Shown in pieces: positions 4,101 to 58,690 of a DNA stretch of 60,000 nucleotides. The DNA lies in contig CM119372.1 in the NCBI GenBank assembly GCA_051294905.1, forward strand, positions 12,588,001-12,648,000, read 5' to 3'. The DNA is from Botryllus schlosseri. Taxonomy: Eukaryota. A model generated the notes under the pieces. The model saw only the letters and a program-made list of their open reading frames with translations, was not told the DNA's origin and did no database searches. A program made the position numbers and the translations under genes. How positions within the stretch are numbered: the stretch's first letter is position 1; each line of letters starts with the position of its first letter.

Positions 4101-6039
4101 TAGATGCAACGTTAAGCCTCGCCGGGAAACTTTAATGTTTGGAAATAGTTTACTTTTCGAAAACTTGCCACATCCAATACATTAGCTAATCTCAAGCAAT
4201 CGTTTGGAAGCTCAGTAAAGAAGCTCGCGAAAATCTTCCAGGTTAGACTTGACATATGAGGGGTAAACAGCTTCCTTGTTTTACACCCTAATATGATATA
4301 CGTCCCAGATCCACAGACGAATGCAGTATTCGTCACCCAGTGACATAGCCCGTGACTGATATCCATCTGCCAAGTTACCGTGGTTTCTGTAGTTTGTTTC
4401 CAGTTGACTAGCATCATAAAGATGTACCTAATTTTGCAGTCATTCGGTTTATATTCAGAATGAAAACTATTTCGTGAAATCCCCGATCGCCAAAATGGTT
4501 TCGTAGTTCGATTTCTATTTTTGAAAAAAAAAGTAGTCTTTAGCACTTCCTCATATAACTATTTCTATTATCTTCGCCGCAACTGATTGCTCAACGATAT
4601 GTGATCTCGAATAGCTGGTGTTACAGTTCTGGCTAAATCGCAAGCAATTTGGGTAAACAATATCTAAGGAAAAGTTCCTAATGTCAATCCGACCGATATA
4701 TCTGCATCCGTAGAGATATCGGCATTGACCAACTCCGAAACTGCGTCCGGTACGTACGTGCACTCATGTTTATAGAACACTAGATAAGCGACAGCCTTTT
4801 TCTCCTTTGTTCTTGGTTGGACAATTTCCTACGCCTATGTTAATAATTAATTATTATCGTCGGATTATATTTTACTATTAACAAGGCACACACAATGTAA
4901 AATGCGATACAAACAGGCCGTGTTATTTTTGACATTTTTCAGATTTTGTTTTTGGTAGTTTTGGCATCGCCAGGAATTTATATTTGTATACTCGAGTAAA
5001 CGATGTAAAACGCTTTATAGTTCAATCTTTATTATCAAACGAAAGTCACAAACGTGCAGTATCAACTTTGTGTCATCAAACGGCGACAGTAAAACCGACT
5101 ACATATCGTTGTGGGAGAGTCAATTCACCTAATACGAGGCCGACCGACTGCTTCTGCAATATCTAATCCGAATAGTAGATTCCATATGCCTGCATACTCA
5201 CCTGTATTCACACAAATCACAATACCACTTATGATAACAATTCAAAATCGTTGCTCACACGTGTAAATCACAACCCTTCACTCGCTATAATCAATGGTTA
5301 GAAATCACGAGTAGCTTCAATACTCAATAAAATATGAAAAAATACCCAACGGGCAAACAAAACAAAAAACAGTGAAGGACTGGATGTTCGCAAGCCTGTG
5401 TATGGTAGCCTATGCATTGACGAGGGTCACTTCTTGGTGACCAGGGCTGTTGGGTCGGAGTCTGAGTACCTTTTTAGCACGCCTCGGAGTCGAAGTCGGA
5501 GTCGTCAAAAAATACTGACTTGATTCGGGGTCGGAGTTTGTGAAAATGACCCTGACTCCGACTCCGACTCCGACTCCAACTTCTTTATTTTGAAAACAAT
5601 TGCTTTCAAAGGCGATTTATTATTGACATGTCAATAAAGTCAAAATCAGGTCAAAGTTGTAGCGTTGGGTCAAAAAATGTCAAAATTGTTTACAAAGTCA
5701 AAACTTTTTTGCAACCTACATTTCGTTTGTATCGTAGATTTTGCACTGTCGGTGAACTTATCATTTGACATTTTACAGTTTGTAGCCTACTTCATAGACC
5801 TATCGTTGTAGACGGCCCCTTGTCTGCTCATTGTGAATGATAAATATTCAAATGAAACAAATAGGTTGACATTGCGTTATGCTCAACGTACCGCAATATC
5901 CCAACTGAAGCAAGACTGCGAGCGCATTGCATGATTCTTATATCAAGAAGCGCATTATGAAAAATTGTGATGTAGACACCATTGCCAGAATGAAACAACA
6001 CGGTTTGTCACCAGCAGTGTATACGCACAACTTCAGTGT

Positions 6040-6156
6040 TGTCAGCCAACAACTGCTGATGTTGAACGTTCTTTCTCCATTCTTGGCAAGCTACTTAGTA
6101 AGGACAGACACTTTCTACCCGAGAATGTAGGAAAGTATCTTTCGTTGTACTACAAA
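6040..6156 (+). pseudogene. hAT-like transposase C-terminal (dimerisation domain) remnant
   Basis: Frame reads CQPTTADVERSFSILGKLLSKDRHFLPENVGKYLSLYYK, containing the P.T...ERSFS motif of hAT C-termini. It is frameshifted relative to the upstream ORF 5927-6130. Confidence 0.7.
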
Positions 6157-6505
6157 TTTTTTCAATTATTTCTACCATAATGCGTAATGTAACCAGACAT
6201 GGGGTAATCGCGATTAGTAATCGTAATCGATTACGACGATTACAGCATTTTCAAGTAATCGTAATCGCAATCGATTACATTCGAAAAAATTCCGAAGAAA
6301 TCGTGATCGTAATCGACTACTTCTCACATCTAATCAATTTCTTTGTGAAAGAGCGATTCGTTTTTATTTGTACAAGGACTACGAGATTAACTCAACATTC
6401 GTGAACAAGGAAAAGATATTATACCAGGTTGGTGATAGCACAAACGTCTGATTTACAAACACCACTGCTCATTATCACGTCAGTAGTATAAAAGATCGCT
6501 CGTGA

Positions 6506-6965
6506 GGTGGCAGGGGTTCTTATGGGCGGGGTGGCATGGTGCCGTGAAACCGGGGGTGGCATGGTGACCCTTATGTCTTATGGCGGGGGTGGCATGGTGC
6601 CATTGTGTCTTATGGCGGGGGTGGCATGGTTACCTTTTCGGGTATAGGCTGCGGCGGCATGGTGCCGAGAAACCGGGGGTGGCATGCGGCTATTTCGTCT
6701 TATGGCGGGGGTGGCATGGTGCCATTGTGTCTTATGGCGAGGGTGGCATGGTGACCCTTATGTCTTATGGCGGGGGTGGCATGGTGCCATTGTGTCTTAT
6801 GGCGGGGGTGGCATGGTTACCTTTTCGGGTATAGGCTGCGGCGGCATGGTGCCGAGAAACCGGGGGTGGCATGCGGCTATTTCGTCTTATGGCGGGGGTG
6901 GCATGGTGCCATTGTGTCTTATGGCGGGGGTGGCATGGTTACCTTTTCGGGTATAGGCTGCGGCG
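6506..6965 (+). repeat. Subterminal GC-rich tandem repeat (about 30-bp monomer, 187-bp higher-order unit); mirror at 20788-21247
   Basis: Recurring TCTTATGGCGGGGGTGGCATGGT. The block starting at 6571 recurs at 6758. Confidence 0.9.
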
Positions 6966-8904
6966 GTGACTCGTAATGAAAACTCGGGGTCGTGAGTCGT
7001 ACTTTCGGATGGGCCCGCTCGCACATCGCCGTGAAAACTCGTGTTGGCATATCGCGCTTTTAGACCCCCCCCCTTCCGCTCGCACATCGCCATTGGTTCT
7101 TATGGGTGCGCTCGCATGTCGCACTTTCGGGTATAGGCATCTCTCGCACATCGCATGGAAAACTCGTGGTGGCACATCGCCCTTTCGGGTAAAGGCACCT
7201 CTCGCACATCGCCCTTTCGGGTAAAGGCATCTCTCGCACGTCGTACTTTCGCATGTCGTGCTTTCGCGTATAGGCTGTGTTGGTGATTCACCATGTGTTC
7301 TTATGGGTGCAGTCGTGAATCGTACTTTCAGGCATCTCTCGTGCGGTGTTGAATAGTCACCAACAATAACCGCACAAACGGAAACGTGGCTTGCAAGAGG
7401 ATTAAGCAGTGCGTGCGACCTATATTTCGAATGACCTGCGCGCTGAATTGTTTCCGTGCAGTCGTGTGCTACTATCGATTATTACACTAGATCAGTCAGT
7501 GTGAAATAGTTTGCTAAATCTAGGAATCAGTCGCATGGTGTTACTTTAGTAATTAGTTTACCACAGAGCCGGCGTAGCCGGTGATTCGAATACCGACAAA
7601 TTTTCACTTATTTCTGACCCAACCCTAATCCTCTGTGAAGTTGACGCTTATTCAAAAAGGTGTGAAATAATTGTAAAATCCTAATCCGAAACCGATTATT
7701 TCGACTTTGGCGTAGTGCGCATTGAAATAGGATTGACAAACATGACTAGCAACTTCCCCCACAGTCCCGTTTCGATATTATACACACACTGATTTGAAAC
7801 AAGTAATGTAACATTACAACTCTATTCCCGATCCAGCTTTCCGTTTGTCAAAGAGACATTTTAACATCTTACCATACTCAAAAGAATTATTCACAACATT
7901 ACCAATTGTTAAAAATCTAGTTTTCACTTACTTGATTATATCATAATGTTTCGGGCATAACCATTTTTAGTGACTTGGTGTTAAAGACATACCGATCGCT
8001 CACAAGGTAATATTTCGGTAATTAGTTTACCATAGAACCGGCGTAGACGGTGATTCGAAAACCAACTATTTGACGCTTTCTGGTGCTTGCTATATGTTTG
8101 TACACTTCGAACGTGGTGGACTTTAGTTGCGTGATAAGAATATTCAAGCAACGTGTCAATTTGTCAACTCGAAATGAAACTTGCTACACAGCTCAAGTTG
8201 ATTCGTATCTGAATGTGTTAATTCGGTACAATTCTAATTATTTTGAGAAATCTTTTCGTGATCTTTTGATTCGACCGTAACCTGAATATTACTGACACCG
8301 ACTTTCAGCCACATTGAATTATTCGCACATTCCGCGCCGCTGTTTTCACACCTATAGAATCAATACCAACTATAACTCTACAAGAATCAAGAATCACATA
8401 CGTATGTGCATTATACAGTTATTGTCTTTATTAACTTGAAATCAAACTCTTAACAAAACACCCATCTTATCGCTCGTCAACTCTATCATGAAAATCCTCG
8501 AGTCCTTATCATCAAAAATGTTATAGCGCGGCGTCGGAATCCATTCGTGGGATGTACTAAAGATAAATCCAGATAATCCAAAATGAAATATTTGGACTTT
8601 GACATAGTCTGAATCGAAATATATTGACAAACATGACTACCAACTTTGATCCAGTCACATTTCAAGATCGTACTTTGAAACAATCCTTGAAACTTACAAC
8701 TCTATTCACGACTGAGTTTTCCGTTTACCAAATAGAGTTTCAGTAAATACTATCGCGATATTTTAATGTGTTACTACACACAATAGAATCAATCAATGAA
8801 ATAGCACCTGTTGTAAATATTTCTAACTTGACAGCCACTTGTGCATACCGCGATCGACTTGTGACGCGGTGAGTTAAATCGAAATATTTCAATCTATTTG
8901 TCGA

Positions 8905-9243
8905 GGGGAAGCGAGTGGCGCAGTTGGTTAAGCGCCAGCGTCACGACACCAATGGCTGTGGTTCGGAGGTTTATCTGGGCTCCTCATCGCTAACCTCACT
9001 GCAATAGCAGTGTCTCAAAAAGCCCAGTATGATGGTGAGCCGCGCCAGTACTAAGTCGGCAGTAAAGAAAAGTCCGGATGCATGAAAGAGAGAGAGACTG
9101 ACGCTGGAAGCGCGCGAGTGTGAAAGTCGTCCGGAATGAATACGAAAAGCAAAGAACCTGAACATTACTAATATCATTGTCGTGGTGTACATGACCTTAA
9201 TAGGCGATAAACACCACTGTTGTATGTGTGAAATAAACCAAAC
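8905..9243 (+). mobile_element. tRNA-derived SINE (339 bp) inside the left arm
   Basis: A-box TGGCGCAGTTGG (8916-8927) with D-stem GCGC/GCGC, B-box-like GGTTCG at 8960 and 3' tail AAATAAACCAAAC. Perfect 15-bp TSD CAATCTATTTGTCGA (8890-8904, 9244-9258). Confidence 0.8.
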
Positions 9244-11829
9244 CAATCTATTTGTCGAAACCTTGAACAAACTAGCAGGTTATTTTTTGTTGCAATCGAG
9301 TGAACGGAAATAGTATTACGGCTCAACAATTTTAACATCTTCCCATACACAAAAGAGTAAAATACAAAAAGCCTTGTCAAGTCAATCCGTTTGTAACTTA
9401 CCCAACCAAAGCAAAAAGTATCCTTATGAAAAGTAGACAAGACTACGCGAGTAATCACCACACTCCAAAATCCATAGCAAGTTCGGTTGTAGTCATATAC
9501 CGCCAAATCGTATTTTTATTTGTTCAACTGTAAAAGTCGTTACTATTCTGTAAGATAAAGTAATTACTACTCGGTATATTTTATAAACCAAAGTAAATAC
9601 TACTCGGTGTGTGGTTTGAGATTAACATATTACATTTGAGTATACCGGATTTGAATGTCTGACCAACGTAGTTGAGAATTCATTTCTTACAATCAAACGC
9701 CGGTGTTACATTGAAAGGTATCATACTGTAAACATAAGGATTGACACATTGATTTGATATATGAGATTTTGTAATGTTCGACCACGACTTGATTATTAAA
9801 TTATTCACGATAATTAGACCCGGTGTTGTGGTAAAGGTTATTAGAAAATATCACTTTTGGCATCGAGTACCAGTCGAAGTGAGTGAACAATACTTAATCC
9901 TTTCAGTGACTAGCTGTTGTACGTGCTAAATGTAAAACATTACGAGGTTAAACTCTAAGACTTTGATCAGCACAAGAGCAATTTGGAATATCTTTACTGG
10001 CTGCAACCTATTCTACTAGACAAAACTCGCAGCATTAATAAAATCAAAATATGTGCTACACTGAAATCTACAAAATGTGTTTGTATTGTTGCTAGTAGCG
10101 ATCATGCATTATCATTTGAATCTTCTAAAGTAATTGTAATGATAAAACCAAACTACTCAAAGTCATTACCAACACAAAAAACGATTTCTATGATATTCGT
10201 CAAACGCATCATACCTCAGTATGCAGAAATTATTTGTAGAGTGCATACCAACAAAGAAATCAGGAACACAACCAACACCGAAAATGATAAATGCGTTTCG
10301 CGTTACTATTGATACAAGTTCATTTCTATCGGGCGAAATAAACACCACCACAAAACTCAGAGCATGCAAAGGTCTTGATTGATGTGAATTTCGATTTGTG
10401 TCTTATGATACCAGCAAGCATTTTGGAAATATTATGACTCGTTAAACCAAAGTCGTATGTCCGATTATTAATTGATTGGAAACTTGATCACGTACCTCGA
10501 TCATTACAGAGGAGTATAACACCATTGTCCGACAATCTTTTACAAAAGGATCGAAACCAAGTAACCCAAAGTCGTTGCCGTCGCATAAACAATTTGTACG
10601 ACGTTTGATAAATGTACCCTATACTTTGGTGTACTAGAAATATTTGTAAAACACACTCTGGTAAAGAAATCGAAAAGATATCCTACACCTAAATCTGATA
10701 AAACCATTTTGCACTTTTTGTTCGTCAGTAGTATCCATTTGAGCATGCGAATACCATGTGTAAGTCCAGCACAATTGCGGTATCCATCCGAGTTTAGTTA
10801 ACACAAATTTATTACAACGGAGTCACGTAAACTTTCGTGAAAGAAAAGCATACTCACTCCTAGAGGGTTATGTCAATGCCATAGCAGTTCCCCAACAACA
10901 AAGTACATATGTTTTCTAGTCACGGTCCTTACATCTTTCACATAGATCAATCTACTTTGCTAACGAAAAGTGCTGAGTCATCACATGATCGCTCTCACAA
11001 CAAAACAGCTAGTAGATATTATCATTCAAAATATTCCTAACCCTTTACACACCAGTAACAAATCATACAACGAATATGTTTTGTGGGTTGAATTGCTGTT
11101 CAGTGTCAAGTCTACCTGTTGAAACGTACATTAAAACAACACAGTCACAATCAAATTAAAACCACGAATCTATTTTCATTTCCTCGCAAACTGTCACATA
11201 CAGAAAAATAAATTTAATTTCCCAAAACATACTTGTAACCAATCGCTTTCATTAAACATACAACACCATAATAGTATTTACTTTCTACAACATAGACATT
11301 CCGGTGTAGTCAAGAAATATTTTTAATAATCAAAATCATCGACTTCTGTTTACGGTGTTAGTGTGTGCATGTCATACATGTGGGCCCGTATTAAAATGGA
11401 CACGACACGACTGACTGTAAGGAGATAGAAGTCTATCGCATAGATTTACATGTGGTCTTCGCTACGGTTTCAAAAAACGAATCATCTCTTTTGCATTGAT
11501 CTAGACCGAGCAAGTTAGTTAATGGCCATGATTGTGTTTGTCATATGCGAATGATAGGGTTACTGTCAAATCTACATACAACAATCTTCTGACGATCATA
11601 ATAGCAATTTCATTTTCCTCCCCTTCATAATTGTACAACTCGGTAACTACGTTTAACAAGACCAATCACACTACCAGCGTTGAACACAAGATACCTACCC
11701 AAGTAAAAATATCATTCTGGTTTGGACAACTGACGTTTACCTGTGTAAAATTATCATTTTCACTTGGAGGTCCACCGTTACCTAACTAAAATACCATTGT
11801 CCTTTGGGGATTTATCGTTTACCCAGTGT

Positions 11830-12262
11830 AACAATCCCCCTTTCACTTGGAAATATATTTTTGACCTGAATAACAAACCCCCTATCACTTGGAAATATAT
11901 TTTTGCCCTGGATAACAAACCTTTTTCACTTGGAAATATATTTTTTTCTCTTGGTAACAAACCTTTTTCACTTGGAGATATATTTTTTCTCTGGGTAACA
12001 AACCTTTTTCACTTGGAAATATATTTTTTCTCTTGGTAATAAACCTTTTTCCCTTGGAAATATATTTTTTCTCTGGGTAACAAACCTTTTTCACTTGGAA
12101 ATATATTTTTTCTCTTGGTAATAAACCTTTTTCACTTGGAAATATATTTTTTCTCTGAGTAACAAACCTTTTTCACTTGGGAATATATTTTTTCTCTGGG
12201 TAACAAACCTTTTTCACTTTGGAATATATTTTTTCCCTGACCAACAAACCATTTTCACTTGG
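11830..12262 (+). repeat. 41-42-bp tandem array, about 11 copies plus degenerate flanking copies
   Basis: Unit AACAAACCTTTTTCACTTGGAAATATATTTTTTCTCTGGGT. The CACTTGG core or a one-base variant occurs at 11844, 11886, 11927, 11969, 12010, 12051, 12092, 12133, 12174, 12215 and 12256. Confidence 0.95.
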
Positions 12263-13614
12263 TGGGTCGTCGTTGACCTTAGTAAAAATATCATTTTCCT
12301 TTGGAGATCCGGCGTTTACCAGTGCAACAATACATTTTCTCTTGGTCATCTAACTTTTCCTAGAGTAACAAAAACCATTTTCATTTTGAAATCTGACAAA
12401 CACACCTGACAATTTGGTATTTGTTGTATTGACGATAGTTTGAAATAGATTACAACGAGCAGTGACGGAAATATACACGGACTACCGGTTTCAGAGTATA
12501 CCTCCATCAGTCGTATCACATCAATATCATCGGTTAACCACATACAATATCCTCTTGTACACAGAAATGCATGTTTCGGAAAATTGGACAATAGACTTCG
12601 ATAGTTCTGTGATGTCCAGGTTCACGCTTTGGATTTTCCAGAGTCAAAATGTCTGAATAAAACACCTCCTCGACGATGGTTGGTATGTGGATAACGGTGT
12701 TCGGAAAACGGTTGTATTTATGTCACCCATCGCGATAACAATTCCAGGTCGATTTATCCCCCGCGTGTTTACTATATTGTGTCTTTATTGGTCAATGTAT
12801 GTCTCGACATTCAGTTTGAAATCGGAAACCCTGATAAAGTATGTAACCGGATCCGGATATCAATTCTGAATCGATAAACCAATGAACAATATTCAAAGTA
12901 AACATGTTACATCCTGTGTTTCCACGAAAAAATACCATCCAGACATACGTCGCGCTTGTTTACCCACAACAGTATACGCGTAAATGGAGGTGTGTGACAT
13001 TGCATGCAATGTGTTGGTATACAAACATCGATCCACAGACATTAACATAGCCGGTAGTTTTGATGTAGATCGAATGTCATCACACCCGATAACAATGTCA
13101 TACCAATAAGCCACATTGCAACGACTCTGAGTCAATCTGAAGCAGGACATACAGACACACAAACATGGAACCGTAACATGGGTTATTCGCACGACAGTGA
13201 AAGTGAACTGTACAGTACATACCAATATTGTGATCACAGTCAAATATGCGAACCGTGCACAATCATATACCCAGGTTTTTGTTGGATATGTACGAAACCG
13301 ATAAATCGATACATTTCTTTTCCTTTGACGTCAACAATACAATCACCATTCCAATGTATCGCTCGAATGTGAGGTTCATCTGGTGTAAAATCCATGTCAA
13401 ATAACACCAAAGTGTGCTTTCCGTGTTTTATTATTTCAACCGTCGCTTCTTGTCTGTGTCGTAACACTATGGTGCAGGGACTTGAAAAACGGTGGATTGT
13501 GAAACGGATTGACATGACCAACAGAATCGACGTCAATAGACTTGTTACGATGTCGTTTCAAAATGCTCCGATGTGACGAGCGCAACCTCGATTTATTGTG
13601 GCGATGACCGTTTC

Positions 13615-13670
13615 GAAATGTTACCGGACGAACTGGACCCTTGAAATGTTACCGGACGAACTGGATCCTT
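13615..13670 (+). repeat. 28-bp direct tandem duplication at the centre of the palindrome spacer
   Basis: GAAATGTTACCGGACGAACTGGA(C/T)CCTT occurs twice. Confidence 0.9.
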
Positions 13671-14973
13671 ACGATGGTGTGTTTTATGATTGTGTGTGAA
13701 ATCACGAGGCAGTGTTCTATTGTGGTATACGATTGCAGTCTTCATTCCACTGAAACACACCTTATTGGATTACAGTATCAGCCCGATATTTGCAGAATCA
13801 CTGTTCACGATATTTATCTGGAGTCGTTATGTGGGAGTAGCGACATACATTCATCGTGACTGAAAGACTGATCGCAATCATTTCGAGCACCCGTACTAGA
13901 TCAAACGCTGTAGTCTCAGCAGAAAACTTCGGTGTCGACAACACGATGGATATTGACCCATGTATCCAATTGATCTGGGACGTCTGTCCGGAGATAGGGT
14001 CATGACTATCTTGTAATGTTACAACGCGATAAAACCATCGAGTAAATCAGTAAACGGGGTCGAAATATCGATGTAATACCGCGGACTCAGAGTCGTTGCA
14101 ATGTGGCTTATTGGTATGACATTGTTATCGGGTGTGCTTGATGACATTCGATCTACATCAAAACTACCGGCTATGTTAATGTCTGTGGATCGAAGGCTTA
14201 CTCCCCGATGTTTGTATACCAACACATTGCATGCAATGTCACACACCTCCATTTACGCGTATACTGTTGTGGGTAAACAAGCGCGACGTATGTCTGGATG
14301 GTATTTTTTCGTGGAAACACAGGATGTAACATGTTTACTTTGAATATTGTTCATTGGTTTATCGATTCAGAATTGATATCCGGATCCGGTTACATACTTT
14401 ATCAGGGTTTCCGATTTCAAACTGAATGTCGAGACATACATTGACCAATAAAGACACAATATAGTAAACACGCGGGGGAAAACTCGACCTGGAATTGTTA
14501 TCGCGATGGGTGACATAAATCCAACCGTTTTCCGAACACCGTTATCCACATACCAACCATCGTCGAGGAGGTGTTTTATTCAGACATTTTGACTCTGGAA
14601 AATCCAAAGCGTGAACCTGGACATCACAGAACTATCGAAGTCTATTGTCCAATTTTCCGAAACATGCATTTCTGTGTACAAGAGGATATTGTATGTGGTT
14701 AACCGATGATATTGATGTGATACGACTGATGGAGGTATACTCTGAAACCGGTAGTCCGTGTATATTTCCGTCACTGCTCGTTGTAATCTATTTCAAACTA
14801 TCGTCAATACAACAAATACCAAATTGTCAGGTGTGTTTGTCAGATTTCAAAATGAAAATGGTTTTTGTTACTCTAGGAAAAGTTAGATGACCAAGAGAAA
14901 ATGTATTGTTGCACTGGTAAACGCCGGATCTCCAAAGGAAAATGATATTTTTACTAAGGTCAACGACGACCCA

Positions 14974-15406
14974 CCAAGTGAAAATGGTTTGTTGGTCAGG
15001 GAAAAAATATATTCCAAAGTGAAAAAGGTTTGTTACCCAGAGAAAAAATATATTCCCAAGTGAAAAAGGTTTGTTACTCAGAGAAAAAATATATTTCCAA
15101 GTAAAAAAGGTTTATTACCAAAAGAAAAAATATATTTCCAAGTTAAAAAGGTTTGTTACCCGGAGAAAAAATATATTTCCAAGGGAAAAAGGTTTATTAC
15201 CAAGAGAAAAAATATATTTCCAAGTGAAAAAGGTTTGTTACCCAGAGAAAAAATATATCTCCAAGTGAAAAAGGTTTGTTACCAAGAGAAAAAAATATAT
15301 TTCCAAGTGAAAAAGGTTTGTTATCCGGGGCAAAAATATATTTCCAAGTGAAAGGGGGTTTGTTATTCAGGTCAAAAATATATTTCCAAGTGAAAAGGGG
15401 ATTGTT
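14974..15406 (-). repeat. Mirror copy of the 41-bp tandem array
   Basis: Unit CCAAGTGAAAAAGGTTTGTTACCCAGAGAAAAAATATATTT. Same length as the left copy, with several SNPs. Confidence 0.95.
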
Positions 15407-18400
15407 ACACTGGGTAAACGATAAATCCCTAAAGGACAATGGTATTTTAGTTAGGTAACGGTGGACCTCCAAGTGAAAATGATAATTTTACACAGGTAAA
15501 CGTCAGTTGTCCAAACCAGAATGATATTTTTACTTGGGTAGGTATCTTGTGTTCAACGCTGGTAGTGTGATTGGTCTTGTTAAACGTAGTTACCGAGTTG
15601 TACAATTATGAAGGGGAGGAAAATGAAATTGCTATTATGATCGTCAGAAGATTGTTGTATGTAGATTTGACAGTAACCCTATCATTCGCATATGACAAAC
15701 ACAATCATGGCCATTAACTAACTTGCTCGGTCTAGATCAATGCAAAAGAGATGATTCGTTTTTTGAAACCGTAGCGAAGACCACATGTAAATCTATGCGA
15801 TAGACTTCTATCTCCTTACAGTCAGTCGTGTCGTGTCCATTTTAATACGGGCCCACATGTATGACATGCACACACTAACACCGTAAACAGAAGTCGATGA
15901 TTTTGATTATTAAAAATATTTCTTGACTACACCGGAATGTCTATGTTGTAGAAAGTAAATACTATTATGGTGTTGTATGTTTAATGAAAGCGATTGGTTA
16001 CAAGTATGTTTTGGGAAATTAAATTTATTTTTCTGTATGTGACAGTTTGCGAGGAAATGAAAATAGATTCGTGGTTTTAATTTGATTGTGACTGTGTTGT
16101 TTTAATGTACGTTTCAACAGGTAGACTTGACACTGAACAGCAATTCAACCCACAAAACATATTCGTTGTATGATTTGTTACTGGTGTGTAAAGGGTTAGG
16201 AATATTTTGAATGATAATATCTACTAGCTGTTTTGTTGTGAGAGCGATCATGTGATGACTCAGCACTTTTCGTTAGCAAAGTAGATTGATCTATGTGAAA
16301 GATGTAAGGACCGTGACTAGAAAACATATGTACTTTGTTGTTGGGGAACTGCTATGGCATTGACATAACCCTCTAGGAGTGAGTATGCTTTTCTTTCACG
16401 AAAGTTTACGTGACTCCGTTGTAATAAATTTGTGTTAACTAAACTCGGATGGATACCGCAATTGTGCTGGACTTACACATGGTATTCGCATGCTGTGCAC
16501 ATATACAAACTTTTGTGTAAACAACTCTGATGTTTCTGTTAGTACTAGTTCTGTGTTGAACTATTTGATTATTAAGATACATGAACACCCCTTCAGACAA
16601 TAAAGGTCTTGTGATATCGAAACAGTTTGTAGAGTCTAACCAACCATTCTTTAGTTTTGTAATGCGAGAATATCGAGTAAAGTTAATTACTTAGTGCGAT
16701 GTTAATATCCTTCGTACTTTTGTAAGAGTTGTGGGGTAACATACAAAGTAACTAATTGACACAAACAAAATGGTGATATTATGAAGATGATGCCGCAACA
16801 ACACAGCAAGTAATATTTTGTATCGGGTGTTTGTACTTTGGGAATAGCGGAGTGTGCGATATTTTGGATATGTGTGCACGGTTGTAAACTACGGTTGTTC
16901 TTGGGTCTTGCGTCGAGTAAATCATAACTATGTCTAGAATTCAAACACATCCAAGTAAGTTCTTTAGCGACTATGATTACATTTACTTTGACGAGAGGAA
17001 ATGGAAAAATTCAAATGGATACTACTGACGAACAAAAAGTGCAAAATGGTTTTATCAGATTTAGGTGTAGGATATCTTTTCGATTTCTTTACCAGAGTGT
17101 GTTTTACAAATATTTCTAGTACACCAAAGTATAGGGTACATTTATCAAACGTCGTACAAATTGTTTATGCGACGGCAACGACTTTGGGTTACTTGGTTTC
17201 GATCCTTTTGTAAAAGATTGTCGGACAATGGTGTTATACTCCTCTGTAATGATCGAGGTACGTGATCAAGTTTCCAATCAATTAATAATCGGACATACGA
17301 CTTTGGTTTAACGAGTCATAATATTTACAAAATGCTTGCTGGTATCATAAGACACAAATCGAAATTCACATCAATCAAGACCTTTGCATGCTCTGAGTTT
17401 TGTGGTGGTGTTTATTTCGCCCGATAGAAATGAACTTGTATCAATAGTAACGCGAAACGCATTTATCATTTTCGGTGTTGGTTGTGTTCCTGATTTCTTT
17501 GTTGGTATGCACTCTACAAATAATTTCTGCATACTGAGGTATGATGCGTTTGACGAATATCATAGAAATCGTTTTTTGTGTTGGTAATGACTTTGAGTAG
17601 TTTGGTTTTATCATTACAATTACTTTAGAAGATTCAAATGATAATGCATGATCGCTACTAGCAACAATACAAACACATTTTGTAGATTTCAGTGTAGCAC
17701 ATATTTTGATTTTATTAATGCTGCGAGTTTTGTCTAGTAGAATAGGTTGCAGCCAGTAAAGATATTCCAAATTGCTCTTGTGCTGATCAAAGTCTTAGAG
17801 TTTAACCTCGTAATGTTTTACATTTAGCACGTACAACAGCTAGTCACTGAAAGGATTAAGTATTGTTCACTCACTTCGACTGGTACTCGATGCCAAAAGT
17901 GATATTTTCTAATAACCTTTACCACAACACCGGGTCTAATTATCGTGAATAATTTAATAATCAAGTCGTGGTCGAACATTACAAAATCTCATATATCAAA
18001 TCAATGTGTCAATCCTTATGTTTACAGTATGATACCTTTCAATGTAACACCGGCGTTTGATTGTAAGAAATGAATTCTCAACTACGTTGGTCAGACATTC
18101 AAATCCGGTATACTCAAATGTAATATGTTAATCTCAAACCACACACCGAGTAGTATTTACTTTGGTTTATAAAATATACCGAGTAGTAATTACTTTATCT
18201 TACAGAATAGTAACGACTTTTACAGTTGAACAAATAAAAATACGATTTGGCGGTATATGACTACAACCGAACTTGCTATGGATTTTGGAGTGTGGTGATT
18301 ACTCGCGTAGTCTTGTCTACTTTTCATAAGGATACTTTTTGCTTTGGTTGGGTAAGTTACAAACGGATTGACTTGACAAGGCTTTTTGTATTTTACTCTT

Positions 18401-18509
18401 TTGTGTATGGGAAGATGTTAAAATTGTTGAGCCGTAATACTATTTCCGTTCACTCGATTGCAACAAAAAATAACCTGCTAGTTTGTTCAAGGTTTCGACA
18501 AATAGATTG

Positions 18510-18848
18510 GTTTGGTTTATTTCACACATACAACAGTGGTGTTTATCGCCTATTAAGGTCATGTACACCACGACAATGATATTAGTAATGTTCAGGTTCT
18601 TTGCTTTTCGTATTCATTCCGGACGACTTTCACACTCGCGCGCTTCCAGCGTCAGTCTCTCTCTCTTTCATGCATCCGGACTTTTCTTTACTGCCGACTT
18701 AGTACTGGCGCGGCTCACCATCATACTGGGCTTTTTGAGACACTGCTATTGCAGTGAGGTTAGCGATGAGGAGCCCAGATAAACCTCCGAACCACAGCCA
18801 TTGGTGTCGTGACGCTGGCGCTTAACCAACTGCGCCACTCGCTTCCCC
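18510..18848 (-). mobile_element. Mirror copy of the tRNA-derived SINE inside the right arm
   Basis: Reverse complement of 8905-9243 with the same TSD. Confidence 0.8.
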
Positions 18849-19019
18849 TCGACAAATAGATTGAAATATTTCGATTTAACTCACCGCGTCACAAGTCGAT
18901 CGCGGTATGCACAAGTGGCTGTCAAGTTAGAAATATTTACAACAGGTGCTATTTCATTGATTGATTCTATTGTGTGTAGTAACACATTAAAATATCGCGA
19001 TAGTATTTACTGAAACTCT

Positions 19020-20200
19020 ATTTGGTAAACGGAAAACTCAGTCGTGAATAGAGTTGTAAGTTTCAAGGATTGTTTCAAAGTACGATCTTGAAATGTGACT
19101 GGATCAAAGTTGGTAGTCATGTTTGTCAATATATTTCGATTCAGACTATGTCAAAGTCCAAATATTTCATTTTGGATTATCTGGATTTATCTTTAGTACA
19201 TCCCACGAATGGATTCCGACGCCGCGCTATAACATTTTTGATGATAAGGACTCGAGGATTTTCATGATAGAGTTGACGAGCGATAAGATGGGTGTTTTGT
19301 TAAGAGTTTGATTTCAAGTTAATAAAGACAATAACTGTATAATGCACATACGTATGTGATTCTTGATTCTTGTAGAGTTATAGTTGGTATTGATTCTATA
19401 GGTGTGAAAACAGCGGCGCGGAATGTGCGAATAATTCAATGTGGCTGAAAGTCGGTGTCAGTAATATTCAGGTTACGGTCGAATCAAAAGATCACGAAAA
19501 GATTTCTCAAAATAATTAGAATTGTACCGAATTAACACATTCAGATACGAATCAACTTGAGCTGTGTAGCAAGTTTCATTTCGAGTTGACAAATTGACAC
19601 GTTGCTTGAATATTCTTATCACGCAACTAAAGTCCACCACGTTCGAAGTGTACAAACATATAGCAAGCACCAGAAAGCGTCAAATAGTTGGTTTTCGAAT
19701 CACCGTCTACGCCGGTTCTATGGTAAACTAATTACCGAAATATTACCTTGTGAGCGATCGGTATGTCTTTAACACCAAGTCACTAAAAATGGTTATGCCC
19801 GAAACATTATGATATAATCAAGTAAGTGAAAACTAGATTTTTAACAATTGGTAATGTTGTGAATAATTCTTTTGAGTATGGTAAGATGTTAAAATGTCTC
19901 TTTGACAAACGGAAAGCTGGATCGGGAATAGAGTTGTAATGTTACATTACTTGTTTCAAATCAGTGTGTGTATAATATCGAAACGGGACTGTGGGGGAAG
20001 TTGCTAGTCATGTTTGTCAATCCTATTTCAATGCGCACTACGCCAAAGTCGAAATAATCGGTTTCGGATTAGGATTTTACAATTATTTCACACCTTTTTG
20101 AATAAGCGTCAACTTCACAGAGGATTAGGGTTGGGTCAGAAATAAGTGAAAATTTGTCGGTATTCGAATCACCGGCTACGCCGGCTCTGTGGTAAACTAA
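19020..20200 (+). pseudogene. Two decayed tandem paralogous ORFs of unknown family within the element (mirror at 7553-8733, - strand)
   Basis: KVGSHVCQ/(fs)IYFDSDYVKVQIFHFGL versus EVASHVCQSYFNAHYAKVEIIGFGL. C-termini QIVGFRITVYAGSMVN* (stop 19729-19731) versus KFVGIRITGYAGSVVN* (stop 20198-20200). Confidence 0.6.
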
Positions 20201-20787
20201 TTACTAAAGTAACACCATGCGACTGATTCCTAGATTTAGCAAACTATTTCACACTGACTGATCTAGTGTAATAATCGATAGTAGCACACGACTGCACGGA
20301 AACAATTCAGCGCGCAGGTCATTCGAAATATAGGTCGCACGCACTGCTTAATCCTCTTGCAAGCCACGTTTCCGTTTGTGCGGTTATTGTTGGTGACTAT
20401 TCAACACCGCACGAGAGATGCCTGAAAGTACGATTCACGACTGCACCCATAAGAACACATGGTGAATCACCAACACAGCCTATACGCGAAAGCACGACAT
20501 GCGAAAGTACGACGTGCGAGAGATGCCTTTACCCGAAAGGGCGATGTGCGAGAGGTGCCTTTACCCGAAAGGGCGATGTGCCACCACGAGTTTTCCATGC
20601 GATGTGCGAGAGATGCCTATACCCGAAAGTGCGACATGCGAGTGCACCCATAAGAACCAATGGCGATGTGCGAGCGGAAGGGGGGGGGTCTAAAAGCGCG
20701 ATATGCCAACACGAGTTTTCACGGCGATGTGCGAGCGGGCCCATCCGAAAGTACGACTCACGACCCCGAGTTTTCATTACGAGTCAC

Positions 20788-21247
20788 CGCCGCAGCCTAT
20801 ACCCGAAAAGGTAACCATGCCACCCCCGCCATAAGACACAATGGCACCATGCCACCCCCGCCATAAGACGAAATAGCCGCATGCCACCCCCGGTTTCTCG
20901 GCACCATGCCGCCGCAGCCTATACCCGAAAAGGTAACCATGCCACCCCCGCCATAAGACACAATGGCACCATGCCACCCCCGCCATAAGACATAAGGGTC
21001 ACCATGCCACCCCCGCCATAAGACACAATGGCACCATGCCACCCCCGCCATAAGACGAAATAGCCGCATGCCACCCCCGGTTTCTCGGCACCATGCCGCC
21101 GCAGCCTATACCCGAAAAGGTAACCATGCCACCCCCGCCATAAGACACAATGGCACCATGCCACCCCCGCCATAAGACATAAGGGTCACCATGCCACCCC
21201 CGGTTTCACGGCACCATGCCACCCCGCCCATAAGAACCCCTGCCACC
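20788..21247 (-). repeat. Mirror copy of subterminal GC-rich tandem repeat
   Basis: Recurring ACCATGCCACCCCCGCCATAAGA. Confidence 0.9.
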
Positions 21248-22507
21248 TCACGAGCGATCTACTATACTACTTACGTCAGAAGTATTAGTATCGCTCATGA
21301 TTGCGTAAGAAGTATCCACACACTGTAAATCGATATTCGACGTACATTGTAGTGTGATTGTAAGAACACATGCCGTGCGACATAACATGTTATCGCAACA
21401 CTCCAGACGCCATCTATACCTCGCAGCAGGAAAATAATAAGCATTCTGCCTAGTTGCAAATGGTAACTTATGTATTGATGTTTAGTTAAAGGTTATGCTT
21501 GTAGTTAAACGCAGTTTGTCTGTTTGTGTTGGGCGAGCAGCAGGCCTATATGTAGCAGGGCTTTGGAACCGAAGCCCGAGCAAGGAGTCGGAGCCCCAGA
21601 GCCGTGCATTTTTAGCGTAGCCGGAGTTCTACATAAAATTCAAGTGGAGCTGGAGCCGATTATTTGAACGGTAGCTCCGGCTCCGATGTATTTCATAAGA
21701 TACTTGTGCTTTTACTAATCGTTGAATTCACATAATTTTACGATAATCGTTCACAAGATTAAGAATTGTTGCCTCGCTGTCACCACATTTTCTATCTACC
21801 CAGTAACCAAGTTCATACATAGGCACCAAAACTGGGTAAGCTGAATTTGCCGCGCTTACTCCGTATTTACTTTATTATGCCTATACCCGCAAGTTCGTTT
21901 TCAGCACAACAACGATGGCCAACTGTGTGGTACGAAAAATGATAAGAACCATGCCTGTCACAAAACGGGATTGCTGCTTATGTGAGCTGAGCAATTTACC
22001 TACGAATATATAAGCGACGCCAGCGAATAAAAACGTTAGCTTGCTGCACATTTCGACTTGGAGGCGCGCATATGCCGCACGCCGAGAAACATCGTCTCCA
22101 TTCTGAATTGGATGAGCAAATGCACGACCTTGGTTGATAGTTTTTTAATCCTAGCGCCAAATTGGACAGTATGTTATCGTTTATGCCTGCGAATTGAAAT
22201 TCATTACAGCGCATGATCGTTTATTCCAATCACGATTTGCGAACGTAAATATAGGGAAACGAATCGAAGCAGCCCAGATCGCTATCATAGTCCACACACA
22301 ATTGTCGGGATGCGAGCTGGTCAATGAGATGTCCGAACCCGGCCCTGGTGTTGAATATAAGAGGGCAATTAGTGATTGGATGCGCGCTTTCCAATTTGTA
22401 AACATCAATTTTGTGTATCCATTCCTGTCGGCTTGATACACTAGTATTCTTTAATTGTCGCGCAATGTCACTTGCGAGCTTGCAGTTTAATTAGGTACTG
22501 TGTACAC

Positions 22508-24081
22508 TAGGGTTATGACTAAAAAAATCGCCTGTAGCAGGAATTGATGAGCATTTTGGTATAAATTAAAAAAATTAAAATCATTTTGTTCAAATCGAAA
22601 AAAAATGTCCGGCACAAACCAACTTCAATTTGCGACGCTGGTCCAAATATAGAAAAAATTTACAATTCAAAGGTATTATTTGCTACAAATTCAATCTTCA
22701 GATATATGTCCTTTTGTACTTCTGGTAAAGTTCATCCATCAATTTGACTTCTCTTTCTGTTATTATGTTAGTGCCAGGGACATCAACAACGGAAATATCC
22801 GACTTCCAATGGGATTTTAAGGCACTTTATCGCTGCAGGACATTCGAGCGCAAAAATAGCAGCAAATAATCTTTGGTATACTCTAGAGCCCGATCGATAT
22901 TGGATATTTGGGTCGATACCGATAAAACCGATATCTCACACCTTGACCGAGAACCCCAATACATTCAGCCGATATTCAAAAGAAGTTGGATATACATAAG
23001 CACATTTTCAAAGCTTCAGAGCATTTATTTGAACTTATTTACAGCCATTGTTATATTTGAACATGAAATAAACCAGAAAGGCTACATCTGGGCACCTGTT
23101 AAGTGTGCACATATTGTGAACTTGCAAGGCGAACCAAAAATTTGATTAGTCTGGCCGCAACACTTCAGATGTGATGACTGAAATATCAGTTCCGACGCAT
23201 TGACAGATCCATCAGCCATTCACATATTGGTATATCTTCGTACACTAAAGCAAAATAATTTGCGATTGATTTATCAAAGGTAAAAAATTTCTACAAGCTT
23301 GACGCAACATGTTGTCACTCGATTTCTTGTTTTTAATATTGTTGCCCTTTTGTGAAAATGGAAGAATACCTACTGTATCAGATTGAGTCGAACTATATTC
23401 GCGATTACGAGACAAAGTGTCGTTCAACATATATGCGACATTGCGTTTGCGCTCGCAGTAAGACCGTCGACTATGAAACCTAGGCACGGAATGATTGACG
23501 CATGTTGGTCGCAGCTTTCGACATCGATATGTCCGTGCGCCGAATAGCCCAGTCCTCGCAAACGTAGCTCAGCGATATACAACATGCCCGCAATATAGTC
23601 AAGTGACAATATTATTGACCTATGAACTACAAAGAGTTTTCGCGCTTCGCGCGGCTATTGGCCCGCGCAATAGTTCGTCATCGAATGTGGCCCTTTGGCT
23701 GAAAAGGTTGGCCAGCCCTGATCTACATCTAAAATCGAAATTAATAATTATTTGATAATTATTTAATTTTGACTGTAAACAAGAAAAAGATAGGAATAAT
23801 TCAATATGATCGATCAAAATTAACCAAAATACTATTTTAAATCTTTGCGATTGGAATTGTGTCAGTTAAATTCAAATCAGTCGGTATATATATTATATAG
23901 TCTGTATCTACAAAAAAAAAGCCTATCCTTCATACCGTGAAAACTGGAAAATTTTTGTGCGGGAGGTTTTTGTTTACCCAGTCTTAACTTTTGATAATTT
24001 TGCAATCAGGACACAAAAGTTCATCGTTTGTGACTACAGGACACACAAAATTTTGATTTTTTTTTCCTAGTCATAACCCTA
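22508..24081. mobile_element. hAT-type MITE
   Basis: TIR TAGGGTTATGACTA...TAGTCATAACCCTA. Perfect TSD GTGTACAC. Confidence 0.85.
23110..23720 (+). mobile_element. 5'-truncated copy of the MITE family at 40359-41062
   Basis: Colinear high similarity to about 40445-41062, ending in AAAAGGTTGGCCAGCCCTG. Confidence 0.8.
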
Positions 24082-36534: not shown

Positions 36535-37806
36535 ATGCAGACGAGGAGAAAAAGACCGGTCCGTGAGGCGTCCAAGGCCGCTGCACCGCCCTCTAATACA
36601 GGCAAGAAAAAGCCTCCAGTGAAATGCATTGTCAAGCCTCCTCCCATCAAAAAACGCAAAAAGTCAAAAAGTTCAGCGAACGAGACTAGTGCCAAAGAAA
36701 TTGTTGAAACCGTTGACACCGTTGTATCGTCGGCACCAGACAAAGCTTTGGAAGAGAAATTACAGGCAGCGCCGCCTGCTACAAAGCCTAAAAGACGAAG
36801 GCGCAAATCATCTACAAAACCCCGTAGAACCAAAAGAAGTCCGTCATTGTTTTCACCTACCTACAAGATACCAAGCCATTCTGAAGAGGAGGACGGTGAA
36901 GATGAAACCGCCTTGCCGCCAAACACGGAGTTAGAGGAACAGGTACCTGAAGTCTCGTCAACAACCGGCGAGCTCGAAACGGTCCCAGAGCACGGAGAAA
37001 CGGAATCTGCGGATCCAAAGGATAGCAGCGGTATGATGACAGCTTTGGAGGAACCTGCATCGTCTCCGGATATCACTCCTCAAGATATTCAAAACGCAGA
37101 GCCGGATTTATCTTACCTTCAGCCCGCCGTTCCCAACGCTTCTGCGAATTACGACGCAGATTGGGAGGTCTTCGATCCGTTCTTTTTCATCAAGCACCTA
37201 CCTCCTTTGACAGAGGAGCAGCGATCTAGGCAACCGGCATTACCGCTAAAAACAAGAAGCTCCCCAGAACTTTCGTTAGTTCTTGACTTGGACGAAACAC
37301 TAGTGCACTGCAGTCTTACCGAGCTGCCAGACGCGGATCTCACTTTCTCTGTCCTATTTCAAGGGATCATGTATCAGGTGTACGTGCGCACCAGGCCGGA
37401 TTTCGGCGAATTTCTGGAGAGAATGTCAAAGTTCTACGAAATCATTCTGTTCACGGCGTCGAAAAAAGTCTACGCCAATAAGTTGCTGAATATGCTAGAC
37501 GGGGAGAAGAAGTTGGTGAAGCACCGACTGTTTCGCGAGCATTGCGTCTGCGTGCAAGGGAATTACATCAAAGATCTCAACATTCTCGGCAGGGATCTCA
37601 GCAAGACTGTAATCGTGGATAACTCCCCGCAGGCTTTCGCTTATCAGCTGTCTAACGGAATTCCGATACTGAGCTGGTTCTCCGACAAATCAGACAGGGA
37701 GCTGCTGAAACTGGCCCCCTTTCTGGAATCGCTCGCAGTTACCGGCGGGGACGTCCGGCCTAAAGTCAAACAGAAGTTCCGTCTCCATGAACTGTTACCC
37801 CCGTAA
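36535..37806 (+). CDS. CTDSPL2: CTD small phosphatase-like 2 (SCP4; FCP1/NIF HAD phosphatase), single coding exon, 423 aa
   Basis: Motifs [107 protein letters not shown] and C-terminal FRLHELLPP. Basic/acidic disordered N-terminus. Acceptor-like TTTGCAG ends at 36475. Confidence 0.97.
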
Positions 37807-40029: not shown

Positions 40030-43000
40030 ATGGAGGCAGATTCTGTTGGACTGGCTGGCTGGATTACCACTGGGCAGCAGTACGTTCTTCATTCCGTACA
40101 GGCGTTGAAGAACAGGTACGTGGATTATGTGGACAAAAATCCGGAAATGATAGCGCAGGTATGTCGACACTCTAATCACTAATGCGTATTACTGAAAATC
40201 CCCATTCCTATCCCAGATGGAGAAATTGCTGACAACAGTGTCGTACGTCATTGAATATCTACCGCAAAATTATGACAATTTCGTACTTGTCTCGGAGTTA
40301 TGTGAGTGCATTGTACATCTGTGATTATATATTTGATCAGTGCCTTGTAACCTTAGACCAGGGCCGGCCAACCCATGGCCCGCGAGAAGGTTTTGTGTGG
40401 CCCGCGAGGTAATTTCCGAAATTATTAATATCAAAAATGGATTGCACAGATTGTGAACTTGCAAGGCCAAACAAAAATTTGATTAGTCTTGCCGCAACAC
40501 TTGAGATGTGATGACTAAAATATCAGTTCCAAAGCATTGGCAGATCCATGAGCCTGTCACATTTTGGTAGATCTTAGTACACTACCATCAAGCAGAATAA
40601 TTTACGATAAATTTATCAAAAGTAAAATTTTCTACACGCTTCGTGCAACATGTTGTCACTCGATTTCTTGCTTTTAATATTGTTACCCCTTTGTGAAAAT
40701 AAAAGAACGACTAATGTAAGAGATTGAGTCTAACTATATTCGCGATTACGAGACAAAGTGTCGTTCAAGATATGCGACCTTGCGTTTGCGCTCGCTGAAA
40801 GACCGTCTACTATATGAAACCTAGGCACAAAATGATTGGCGCACGTTGGTCGAAGCTTTCGATATCGATATGTCCAGGCGCCGAATAGTCCATTCCTTGC
40901 AAACTGAGCCCAACGATATACAGCATGCCCGCATTATAGTCAAGTTACAATAGTATTGACCCATGAACTTCGAAAAATTTTCGCGCTTGGCGTGGCTAGT
41001 GGCCTGCGCAATAGTTCGTCAATCAAATGTGGCCCTTTGGCTGAAAAGGTTGGCCACCCCTGCCTTAGACAGTTCATGGCAGCTGTGCGATTTTACCGCT
41101 ATTTAGTTATCACCAGTTAAGCAGTCTGATGTATAATGATATGCAAACAATCCCGAAGACATGAGACTTCATGAAAAAAAGTTGTTACGGGCATTATTTC
41201 TACGAGTCCATTACTATATTACGGTACCCCTTTCATAAGCATCTTTTGATCGTAAACAGTTTCATAATAAATTTGATCAAAGATTAGCCTCTGTACCCTT
41301 TGTCGTAAACATTTTGTTAATAAATTTGATTGGGGACTTCTAACCATTAAGCATCGAAATTATCGGCACAGCAATTTCAGTAGCTAATGACCACAATTAT
41401 TTTCAATTACCTAGTATTTCGACGTATTTATTAGAGCTTCATTTTGTGGCAGACGTGTTGCATCATTGTGGCTTTGTACCTTGTAGGCTGTATAAGGGCT
41501 GTTCAAAAATAACCTTTTTTCCTGAATCTTGCAGGTTACTTGATTAAATCGTTAGGTTGCCTTAAAAAACGACGCACACCAAATTTGAATTCATTCCAAC
41601 CAATATTCGCGGATTTCGTAGAGTTTGAAAATTTTGAATTTGCCTAAAAATGCAAAAAAAAAAATTTTTCAAATTTTCCTTTCAACCTGATGAAATTGTT
41701 GCGCTGTCTTCAAAAACGATGGAAAACAAATTTGACTCAATTCCAAGCTGTAGAAGCGGAGTTATTCAAGTTTTTTGATGATAATTCTGGGATGATCCAC
41801 CAATCAAGGATAATCCCATAATTATCAAAGAAAAACTGAAATAACTCCACTTCTACGGCTTCGAATTGAGTCAAATTTGTTCTGCATCGTTTTTGAAGAC
41901 AGCGCAACAATGTCATGGGGTTGGCAAAAAAATGTGAAAAATTTTTTTTTTTGCATTTTTAGGCAAATTCAAAATTTTCAAACTCTACGAAATCCGCGAA
42001 TATTGGTTGGAATGAATTCAAATTTGGTGTGCGTCGTTTTTTGAGGCAACCTAACGATTTAATCAAGTAACCTGCAAGATTCAGGAAAAAAGGTTATTTT
42101 TGAACAGCCCTCGTAGCTTGCATCCACTGGTAGGTCATAAGAAAGAACATTTCACATAAAGACAGCTCTAGTATGAAATGTTACAAGCGTGTGCATGTGC
42201 AACTGTACAGTGCATCCACTCTCTTTTGTTAAGATACTGGAATATTTCCTCACCGCAATGACTCATGATGATCCATTGAATATTCTGAAACAAAGATTAT
42301 GCTCAACAGTTGCTTTCATATTAGCTGTGATTTGATGGACGTGAGTCATCAGAGTTGTCAAGGTCCATTTCTTTGTGGTATCTAACTGTGAACAACAGCT
42401 GATTCCTCGACACAGGTGTACAACTGCTCAGTGTGCCTATCCCATCAGCATGGGCTGATAACTTCAACCTTACTCGGACCATGGATATTGATTTTCAAAT
42501 TATTAGAGTAGGCCTACTTGAAAATGTTTACGTTCTTGCTACTTATCGTGGCATTTCATTACATTTGCTACATTTGCGATGAATGCATTCCCATAGACGT
42601 GGGATTCCAGGTAGTACCACCACTTATTTAGCCTTAAAGACTTGAGTGTAGGAATTTGTTAAACTCAGTGACGAGTAACACTGCTATTATAGATTTTAGT
42701 ATTCATGTATGCCAGTTTGCTGACCATGCAGTTACTATACTTTTTCCTACCGTTTCGTTTAACATGACAAGGTTTTTTAATTGACTCAACGTGGCATGCG
42801 GCCTATCTGCCTATCCTATATTATACAAAATCAAACCAGTATCATTGACTACTGGTGCAAGAATTCAACAATAGCAATTCAGTAATCATACTTGATAGCA
42901 GATAAAATCGGATTCTTAAATGATATGCTCATCTGGTCCTGTTCTAACTTCGCGATCAAAAACTGCTGTACCTTCAGCTGTGTCGTTTCTTGACCTTGCC

Positions 43001-56027: not shown

Positions 56028-57036
56028 GGCGGGCTGTGGATGGCGACCGCTTTGAATGGAAAAGACGAAACGCGTCGGATCTGTGTGATCGGTCGCGTGT
56101 GTTGGGGTCGGCGGCGGACGCCCCTTCTCGTTTTGTATTGTGTTTTGTGTCGATGTGAAATATGCAATCGTTTTTGTTTTCTTACTCTGTACCGTGTGCG
56201 ATATCCCGATCGATTTTGTCTACGACATCACGATTAAGGCTGGCAAAATTCGAGTACCCGGAGATTTCAATTCCGATTCTAGTATTAAACCCTGGCCACT
56301 GTTAAAGCCCCGGTAACAATGGCGTTGGTAATTATTACTGATTCTGCACGTTTAGACTACTTGTCTGGCATGGTGGGAAAGATAGGTGGATTCTCCCTTC
56401 GCGTTTCAGCGCAAAATCATGGACGAATCTTGAGGTATTGCCTGCGTAGCGTGACGTTGACTACTGGCATACTTTCGTGGTTGTTTACTGTGCCAATGAA
56501 GCTTAAACGTTCGGCTGCCATTGGTTAATATTTATTTCGATTGTCGTTGAGATCATGGTGTGCAAGATGTCGATTTTTTTCAATCAATAAAGAATGCTCA
56601 ATTGCTCATTTTTATTGTGGACTGTTAAGACTACAAGACTGGGCTTCTCACGTGAGGTCGATCCTGCGTGCTGCAATATAATCTAGCTAGGTCAATTGTG
56701 TAGCAGAAACAAGAATGGCAGATAATTGTGTACTTTGAGGTGGGCGGTCGTCCAGGGACGCACCTGGTCGAAGCCCCCCTCTTTGGTTTAAGCGCTTTTT
56801 TCAAGGATTATAGCGAATAAACATGGAAATCCGTGTACCAATCAAGATGATTCCGTACATATGGGTCAATCATCAAATCTCTGCATGCGGTAGAGGTGCT
56901 TAGGTTTGATGTAGCTATCCTTGTACACATGCAATAATATATATGGCCTAATCCAGCACCTGGCTCAGACCTTTGCGTGGTGTGCTGGCTTATTACTAAT
57001 GTCAGCCGATAGCTTTAAAATTAGTGTGGTCTATTT

Positions 57037-58616: not shown

Positions 58617-58690
58617 GACGACGTGATAGCTCAGTGGTGGAGCGCTCGGCTTCTCGGTCGGCAGGTCGGTTGGTTCGGTTTTTGGCCAAC
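58617..58690 (+). mobile_element. tRNA-derived SINE head
   Basis: TAGCTCAGTGGTGGAGCGC (A box/D arm) ... GGTTCG (partial B box). No intact acceptor or T stems. Confidence 0.5.

Follow-up and report, generated by a model that had tools for sequence, protein, structure and literature searches.

The window analysed here is a stretch of 60,000 nucleotides from Botryllus schlosseri (assembly GCA_051294905.1, contig CM119372.1, positions 12,588,001 to 12,648,000 of the forward strand). At window positions 6482-21271 it carries an element of 14,790 bp, about 94% of which is a single palindrome. The two arms of this element evolve in concert: they were made alike again after the lineage of this copy had split from the rest of its family. 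Junction analysis places the ends of the element at 5'-AGTAGT (6482-6487) and ACTACT-3' (21266-21271), which together form the (AGT)2//(ACT)2 end motif. They are flanked by a probable 6-bp target duplication, CACGTC on the left (6476-6481, + strand) and TACGTC on the right (21272-21277, + strand), alike at five of the six letters. The left arm (6482-13133, + strand) measures 6.65 kb. The right arm (14084-21271, - strand) measures 7.19 kb and is the inverted left arm plus segments of 517, 15 and 4 bp. Between them lies a central spacer, or loop, of 950 bp (13134-14083), whose self-complementarity is at chance level only. The inner arm ends (13123-13133 and 14084-14094) each form a short palindrome, GACTC-N-GAGTC, a possible template-switch point.

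Several repeats are embedded in the arms. GC-rich subterminal tandem repeats with periods of 32, 122 and 187 bp occupy 6506-7275 (+ strand) and are mirrored at about 20478-21247. A 41/42-bp minisatellite at 11696-12392 (+ strand) is mirrored at about 14844-15540; at a guess, the 42-bp units flanking its 41-bp array could be the relic of a coding repeat of 14 residues. A SINE-like insert lies in the left arm at 8890-9258 (+ strand), where 339 bp stand between two copies of a 15-bp target duplication, and again in the right arm at 18495-18863 (- strand), with all 338 compared letters identical. Its tRNA-like head was judged by eye; ARAGORN and Rfam gave no tRNA or Rfam match anywhere in the 60-kb window, the insert included. 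Each arm also holds direct repeats (7676-7856 and 8565-8736, 72% alike; 7531-7597 and 8000-8066, 82% alike; mirrored in the right arm), which are old and possibly represent duplicated regulatory or origin-like motifs.

With the inner arm end taken as 13131, the arms differ by 16 substitutions over 6650 bp (0.24%, or 99.76% alike) and by three indels. The substitutions are at 6491, 6492, 6740, 7110, 10426, eight positions in 11806-12133, 12715, 12753 and 12756. The indels are the three segments confined to the right arm: 517 bp (16495-17011), 15 bp (14194-14208, with 3-bp microhomology) and 4 bp (about 14137-14140). An earlier sequence-only reading of this DNA had described the arms as nearly identical, with exactly mirrored frames, and both descriptions hold: 9983-10312 mirrors 17441-17770 (mirror constant 27753) and 12346-12591 mirrors 14645-14890 (27236). 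Its list of differences was right for 6740, 7110, 10426 and several in the 41-bp array, which in fact holds eight; it placed 12715 at 12716, and lacked 6491, 6492, 12753, 12756 and the three right-arm segments.

In 500-bp bins the mismatch profile is U-shaped. Four substitutions fall in the outer 630 bp, one substitution and one deletion in the next 4.7 kb (7111-11805), and 11 substitutions and two indels beyond. The impression that differences increase inward is thus correct as a count, since 11 of the 16 substitutions and two of the three indels lie in the inner 1.33 kb, but eight of those 11 are in a single minisatellite (8/16 substitutions in 10% of the arm, p=9e-5). With every tandem array set aside, 5183 bp are left, and four of seven clustered difference events lie in the innermost 739 bp of these (p=0.01, post hoc, the boundaries having been picked after the data were seen); with the 41-bp array alone excluded the value is p=0.018. 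A gradient of identity from the termini inward had been proposed as a sign of homogenisation. The density is indeed non-uniform, but it is patchy and shows no steady rise.

The same reading had taken the arms to contain heavily decayed open reading frames (ORFs), none longer than about 116 amino acids (aa). The limit is correct for ATG-started frames, the longest of which in 7300-17050 has 91 aa, but not for stop-to-stop frames, which reach 179, 145 and 117 aa. Decay finds no support in shuffled sequence, composition score, Pfam or PHROGs. The longest frame in 7350-11690, at 117 aa, does not stand out from 300 shuffles, for which the mean is 106 (p=0.27). Frames of at least 60 aa are only slightly in excess of shuffles (p=0.06 and 0.04), with a similar excess in the left host flank. 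Several frame measures of the inner arm and spacer are marginally above shuffles (p 0.04-0.07), and for a 102-aa frame of the segment confined to the right arm p=0.013. By amino-acid composition score no segment exceeds the shuffle range except the minisatellite and the SINE; a host phosphatase frame in the window (see below) scores 63. Neither Pfam (six frames of 7300-14200 and 16300-17300, read through stops) nor PHROGs (frames read through stops) gave a significant match. The ESM Atlas lent no support to decayed genes and offered no usable match for the 117-aa frame; its best feature score, 0.86, is a lead at most. Because any stop is mirrored in near-identical arms, the shared stops that had suggested decay are uninformative. 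On this evidence the arms look mostly non-coding rather than like genes in decay.

No polymerase, integrase, capsid, ATPase or protease was detected (there is no long frame, and Pfam and PHROGs are negative), although remote remnants could escape such searches. One of the three minus frames of 11400-14084, not that with the 91-aa frame, was compared with 1.84 billion proteins. It returned nine composition-type (low-complexity) matches over the minisatellite and an unnamed 79-aa match at 76% identity, probably predicted from a sister copy. The best gene candidate is the 91-aa ATG frame itself, predicted in the spacer at 13240-13515 (- strand). It has one relative cluster (P0131/P0132; 93 aa, 87% identical, same start), with no longer relatives found and no match in Pfam, PDB or viral contigs. 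Six listed family variants fall within it: two are silent, four change a residue and none creates a stop, which is no demonstration of selection.

An abundant family with concerted arms

Part of the element was found in 20 of the 24 public sequencing runs listed. For four of these (X1, X15, X6 and X5), contigs were aligned at 85% likeness to the spacer and right arm (13132-20450), with termini and flanks outside this stretch. Run X1 alone provides 149,842 aligned contigs: 29% are at least 99% alike to the element in the window, 35% are 95-99% alike, 29% are 90-95% alike and 6% are below 90%. The element is therefore one copy of a very abundant family, and the 29% in the highest class give the appearance of a recent spread. 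The comparison proposed earlier, of divergence within and between copies, favours concerted evolution: the arms differ by 0.24%, far below the divergence between copies, while 71% of X1 contigs are less than 99% alike to the element. In X1, at least 10% of the depth shows another letter at 382 places, against 12 arm mismatches in the same stretch.

Dividing the median depth of the arm by the mean depth of the spacer gives 2.43, 2.82, 4.82 and 2.63 for the four runs if nine of the 26 arm bins (those of the minisatellite, the variable region and the SINE) are set aside, and 2.16, 2.54, 4.33 and 2.53 if every arm bin is used. These depths are sums over contigs that overlap one another and do not count copies, and the contigs are unphased as to arm. 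These ratios fit a family carrying two arms per spacer, and the arm-spacer-arm plan appears to be family-wide.

The alleles of the window copy provide a further test, which draws on 40 variant rows out of 590; 26 of the 40 are arm sites. Thirteen of these 26 listed sites have a window allele that makes up less than 3% of the family depth in both X1 and X15. Two of the 13 are in a segment confined to the right arm; the other 11 have a mirror position, and at 10 of them both arms carry the same rare letter. The only exception is 17327/10426, where the left arm has the family letter. The choice of listed rows cannot explain this result because there are only 12 arm mismatches in the whole compared stretch. 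The SINE-like insert points the same way, independently of these alleles. Its bin has only 0.025-0.08 of arm depth, and contigs skipping exactly 354 bp at its site occur in three of the four runs (X1, X15 and X6), so that the empty form is the norm; the window copy nevertheless has the insert in both arms. As a retroelement inserts once, the insert was presumably copied from arm to arm after this lineage had diverged.

These observations rule out a single old fold-back. They also bear on the suggestion that one young fold-back duplication, later than gene decay, produced arms that were never homogenised. Arms that are 99.76% alike would be expected of such an event, but the plan is apparently family-wide (depth ratio above 2 in all four runs), copies are far more diverged than arms, lineage-specific alleles and the SINE-like insert are present in both arms, and there is no sign of decayed genes. 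Had the fold-back arisen anew in each lineage, this would be homogenisation under another name. We consider a one-off duplication very improbable. Of the two explanations offered by the sequence-only reading it is homogenisation that agrees with the family plan, the copy divergence and the alleles and insert common to both arms, and we regard homogenisation by some route as highly likely.

It must also be asked whether assembly or polishing overwrote one arm with the other in the consensus. Long inverted repeats of high-copy families are hard to assemble, and no aligned contig spans the stretch. Against this, the assembly retains 16 substitutions and three indels (the longest of 517 bp) that tell the arms apart, and the flanks are distinct and carry the near-duplication. 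Moreover, a collapse to the majority would erase rare alleles instead of placing them in both arms. An artefact of this kind is most unlikely.

Each of the four runs contains the 4-bp deletion form, which makes up 36% of depth in X1, 50% in X15, 65% in X6 and 99% in the low-depth X5, and a loose end in three X15 contigs matches the 15-bp deletion form. In these unphased contigs, the two indels may represent inherited left-right asymmetries near the loop. The bin at 16548-16791, in the first part of the 517-bp segment, stands at 0.83-1.21 of arm depth, as normal family sequence does, which makes the gap in the left arm a loss of later date.

Other features of the alignments were noted. The region 16792-18011 reaches only 0.23-0.29 of arm depth in all four runs, with several joints (one of them from 17478 to 17861) and with loose ends at 16629, which suggests that the family is structurally variable there. 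In X1, X15 and X6, but not in X5, the inner arm bins 14108-14595 exceed the median arm depth by a factor of about 1.2-2.3, perhaps because they are shared with another family or because of contig fragmentation. Runs labelled organism B and organism C contain the same variants at very low depth; horizontal transfer was not adopted as an explanation, as carried-over host DNA fits equally well. The terminal motifs had no match in viral or metagenome contigs, and one candidate relative (locus L001) was dropped because it has no DNA similarity to the window.

Routes to arm identity

The end motif, the size and the duplication matching at five of six letters point together to ends of Maverick (Polinton) type. 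We favour, as the more probable explanation, a Maverick derivative that depends on a helper and has its arms equalised anew while it replicates through a hairpin; that helper, the hairpin intermediate and the timing of the correction are inferred. A helper Maverick would supply the protein-primed polymerase and the integrase, and strand-displacement copying would free a single strand able to fold into a 6.6-kb stem with a 1-kb loop. Within the stem, either trimming and re-extension or mismatch repair would copy one arm onto the other, usually stopping short of the loop end, and the product would integrate with a 6-bp duplication. On this view the differences that remain between the arms would stem from private changes of later date (10426 and the loss of 517 bp), from turnover of the minisatellite, and from sites near the loop that correction missed.

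The Maverick-like ends could also be coincidental, the element being a foldback-type DNA transposon moved by another transposase. Foldback elements have long arms with internal tandem repeats, and no remnant of a Maverick gene was found. What makes this alternative very doubtful is that the (AGT)2//(ACT)2 motif coincides with a probable 6-bp duplication and with a size in the Maverick range.

A more serious competitor is arm-to-arm gene conversion in place on the chromosome, by way of a cruciform or of pairing within a chromatid, of the kind known from palindromes on mammalian sex chromosomes. The insertion could then be older than the identity of its arms suggests. This would account for the U-shaped profile, with differences at both edges, and for the mismatch in the target duplication, and it has a precedent in the palindromes of the mouse X (10.1101/800185). 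Against it, the differences at 6740 and 7110 and eight of the inner ones lie in tandem arrays with their own turnover, and the family seems to have spread recently (29% of X1 contigs at least 99% alike). The fact that a 354-bp insert was copied while a 517-bp loss was left uncorrected is compatible with both models. We consider conversion in place less likely than the hairpin route, but it is the strongest of the alternatives.

Several results weigh against the hairpin explanation and should be set out together. The gradient is not monotonic, with four substitutions in the outer 630 bp, and two of these are at element positions 10-11, where a panhandle should correct best. For substitutions alone, the inner clustering is not significant (p=0.16). 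The mismatch in the target duplication is unlikely for an insertion as young as an arm divergence of 0.24% suggests, and conversion in place explains both the edge effects and this mismatch at least as well. Both arms carry a rare allele at 14176/13045, a site flanked by the 15-bp and 4-bp indels, which were themselves left uncorrected; simple polar re-extension fails here, unless the 15-bp loss is later or recurrent, and conversion in place can accommodate it. To these must be added the small share of variant rows behind the allele test, the lack of phase in the contigs and the use of depth that is not a copy number.

We put forward more tentatively, and as somewhat less than an even chance, the wider proposal of a class of satellite Mavericks whose replicating form is a nearly complete DNA hairpin and whose 6.6-kb arms are re-equalised at each transposition. 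If this is true, every copy is both a clock, in the manner of long terminal repeats (LTRs), and a record of the endpoints of repair tracts, and hundreds of copies would give a first population-scale read-out of a Polinton replication intermediate that has never been directly observed. The replication route of Maverick/Polinton elements has so far been inferred by analogy with adenovirus; Kapitonov and Jurka reportedly proposed in 2006 that the Polinton single strand folds into a racket or panhandle. An abundant family that is nearly all inverted repeat and has concerted arms makes this route testable from genomes alone. Arm identity cannot be read as insertion age until replication-linked conversion and conversion in place have been told apart. 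The family may also explain part of the large unclassified repeat fraction of ascidian genomes: the description of the Botryllus schlosseri assembly reports 46% unclassified repeats, and its main text mentions neither Maverick nor Polinton (PMC12448946).

Neighbouring genes and repeats

The remainder of the window contains gene-like frames and several other repeats. An intronless frame at 36535-37806 (+ strand) encodes a CTD small phosphatase-like 2 protein (Pfam NIF, E 8.5e-56), the phosphatase part of which is 94% identical to a Styela clava protein and 80% identical to one from Clavelina lepadiformis, a likeness that makes a styelid ascidian the most probable host; it is a single-exon gene or a retrocopy. 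An Amidohydrolase_2 gene at 43089-43977 (- strand) is in two open frames, with an in-frame extra stretch in the first, and these are probably exons rather than parts of a broken gene. About 300 bp to the left of the element, at 5905-6177 (+ strand), is a remnant of the C-terminal dimerisation region of a hAT transposase (E 0.0009, just under the curated cut-off). A near-perfect palindrome of 617 bp at 41495-42111 resembles a miniature inverted-repeat transposable element (MITE), with 304-bp arms that are 93% alike and a 9-bp loop, and a related fragment lies at 1355-1472. At 54818-59556 there is a 4.7-kb element with inverted ends of about 450 bp (77-94% alike) made of TGACTCGAGTCA-type repeats, with no Pfam match inside. 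Finally, 23106-23720 and 40443-41062 are two copies, 87% alike, of a dispersed repeat of 620 bp.

Comparison with known systems

The element shares with Maverick/Polinton elements its end motif and terminal inverted repeats, and probably also a 6-bp duplication (PMC8097293, PMC10748475). Maverick end motifs are (AGT)2//(ACT)2 or (AG)3//(CT)3, the former being the commonest in vertebrates, and intact vertebrate Mavericks are 12.7-24.6 kb long, with repeats spanning 46-1,447 bp and a duplication of 6 bp (PMC8097293). With its 14,790 bp the element is inside the 13-25 kb range of Mavericks, but its 6.65-kb arms differ sharply from the vertebrate repeats and from the 100-1,500 bp generally quoted, and they fall outside a repeat length of about 50-1,500 bp as used to recognise Mavericks. 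It is also far more abundant than vertebrate Mavericks, for which the median is eight copies. The genes of an autonomous Maverick (protein-primed DNA polymerase B and retroviral-type integrase, with capsid, packaging ATPase and protease) were not found. Lacking both the gene content and the repeat length of an autonomous Maverick, the element looks like a dependent Maverick derivative.

Some zebrafish non-autonomous Polintons have inverted repeats of several kb. Non-autonomous Polintons are represented in Repbase, as the name Polinton-1N1_DR indicates (PMC9341505). The likeness to them is a presumed dependence on an autonomous partner.

Sequence correction is known within the panhandles of adenovirus. 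There, displaced strands form panhandles through their inverted ends (PMC9863843), and the element likewise has inverted ends able to anneal on a displaced single strand. The repeats of adenovirus are about 100 bp, whereas the stem would here be 6.6 kb.

In our literature search, whose coverage did not extend to most subscription papers, Repbase Reports and supplements, no palindromic family whose arms evolve in concert came to light, nor any paper testing non-autonomous Polintons for such evolution. Parallels are offered by the palindromes of the mouse X, with their arm-to-arm conversion (10.1101/800185), and linear mitochondrial DNAs and plasmids, whose terminal repeats are subject to conversion (PMC3673629). 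Like the element, X/Y palindromes and linear organelle DNAs have near-identical inverted arms, there maintained by conversion, and repeats that expand into the interior. However, mammalian palindromes are fixed loci and the linear DNAs are organelle replicons, whereas the element described here belongs to a nuclear family that is probably mobile and dispersed.

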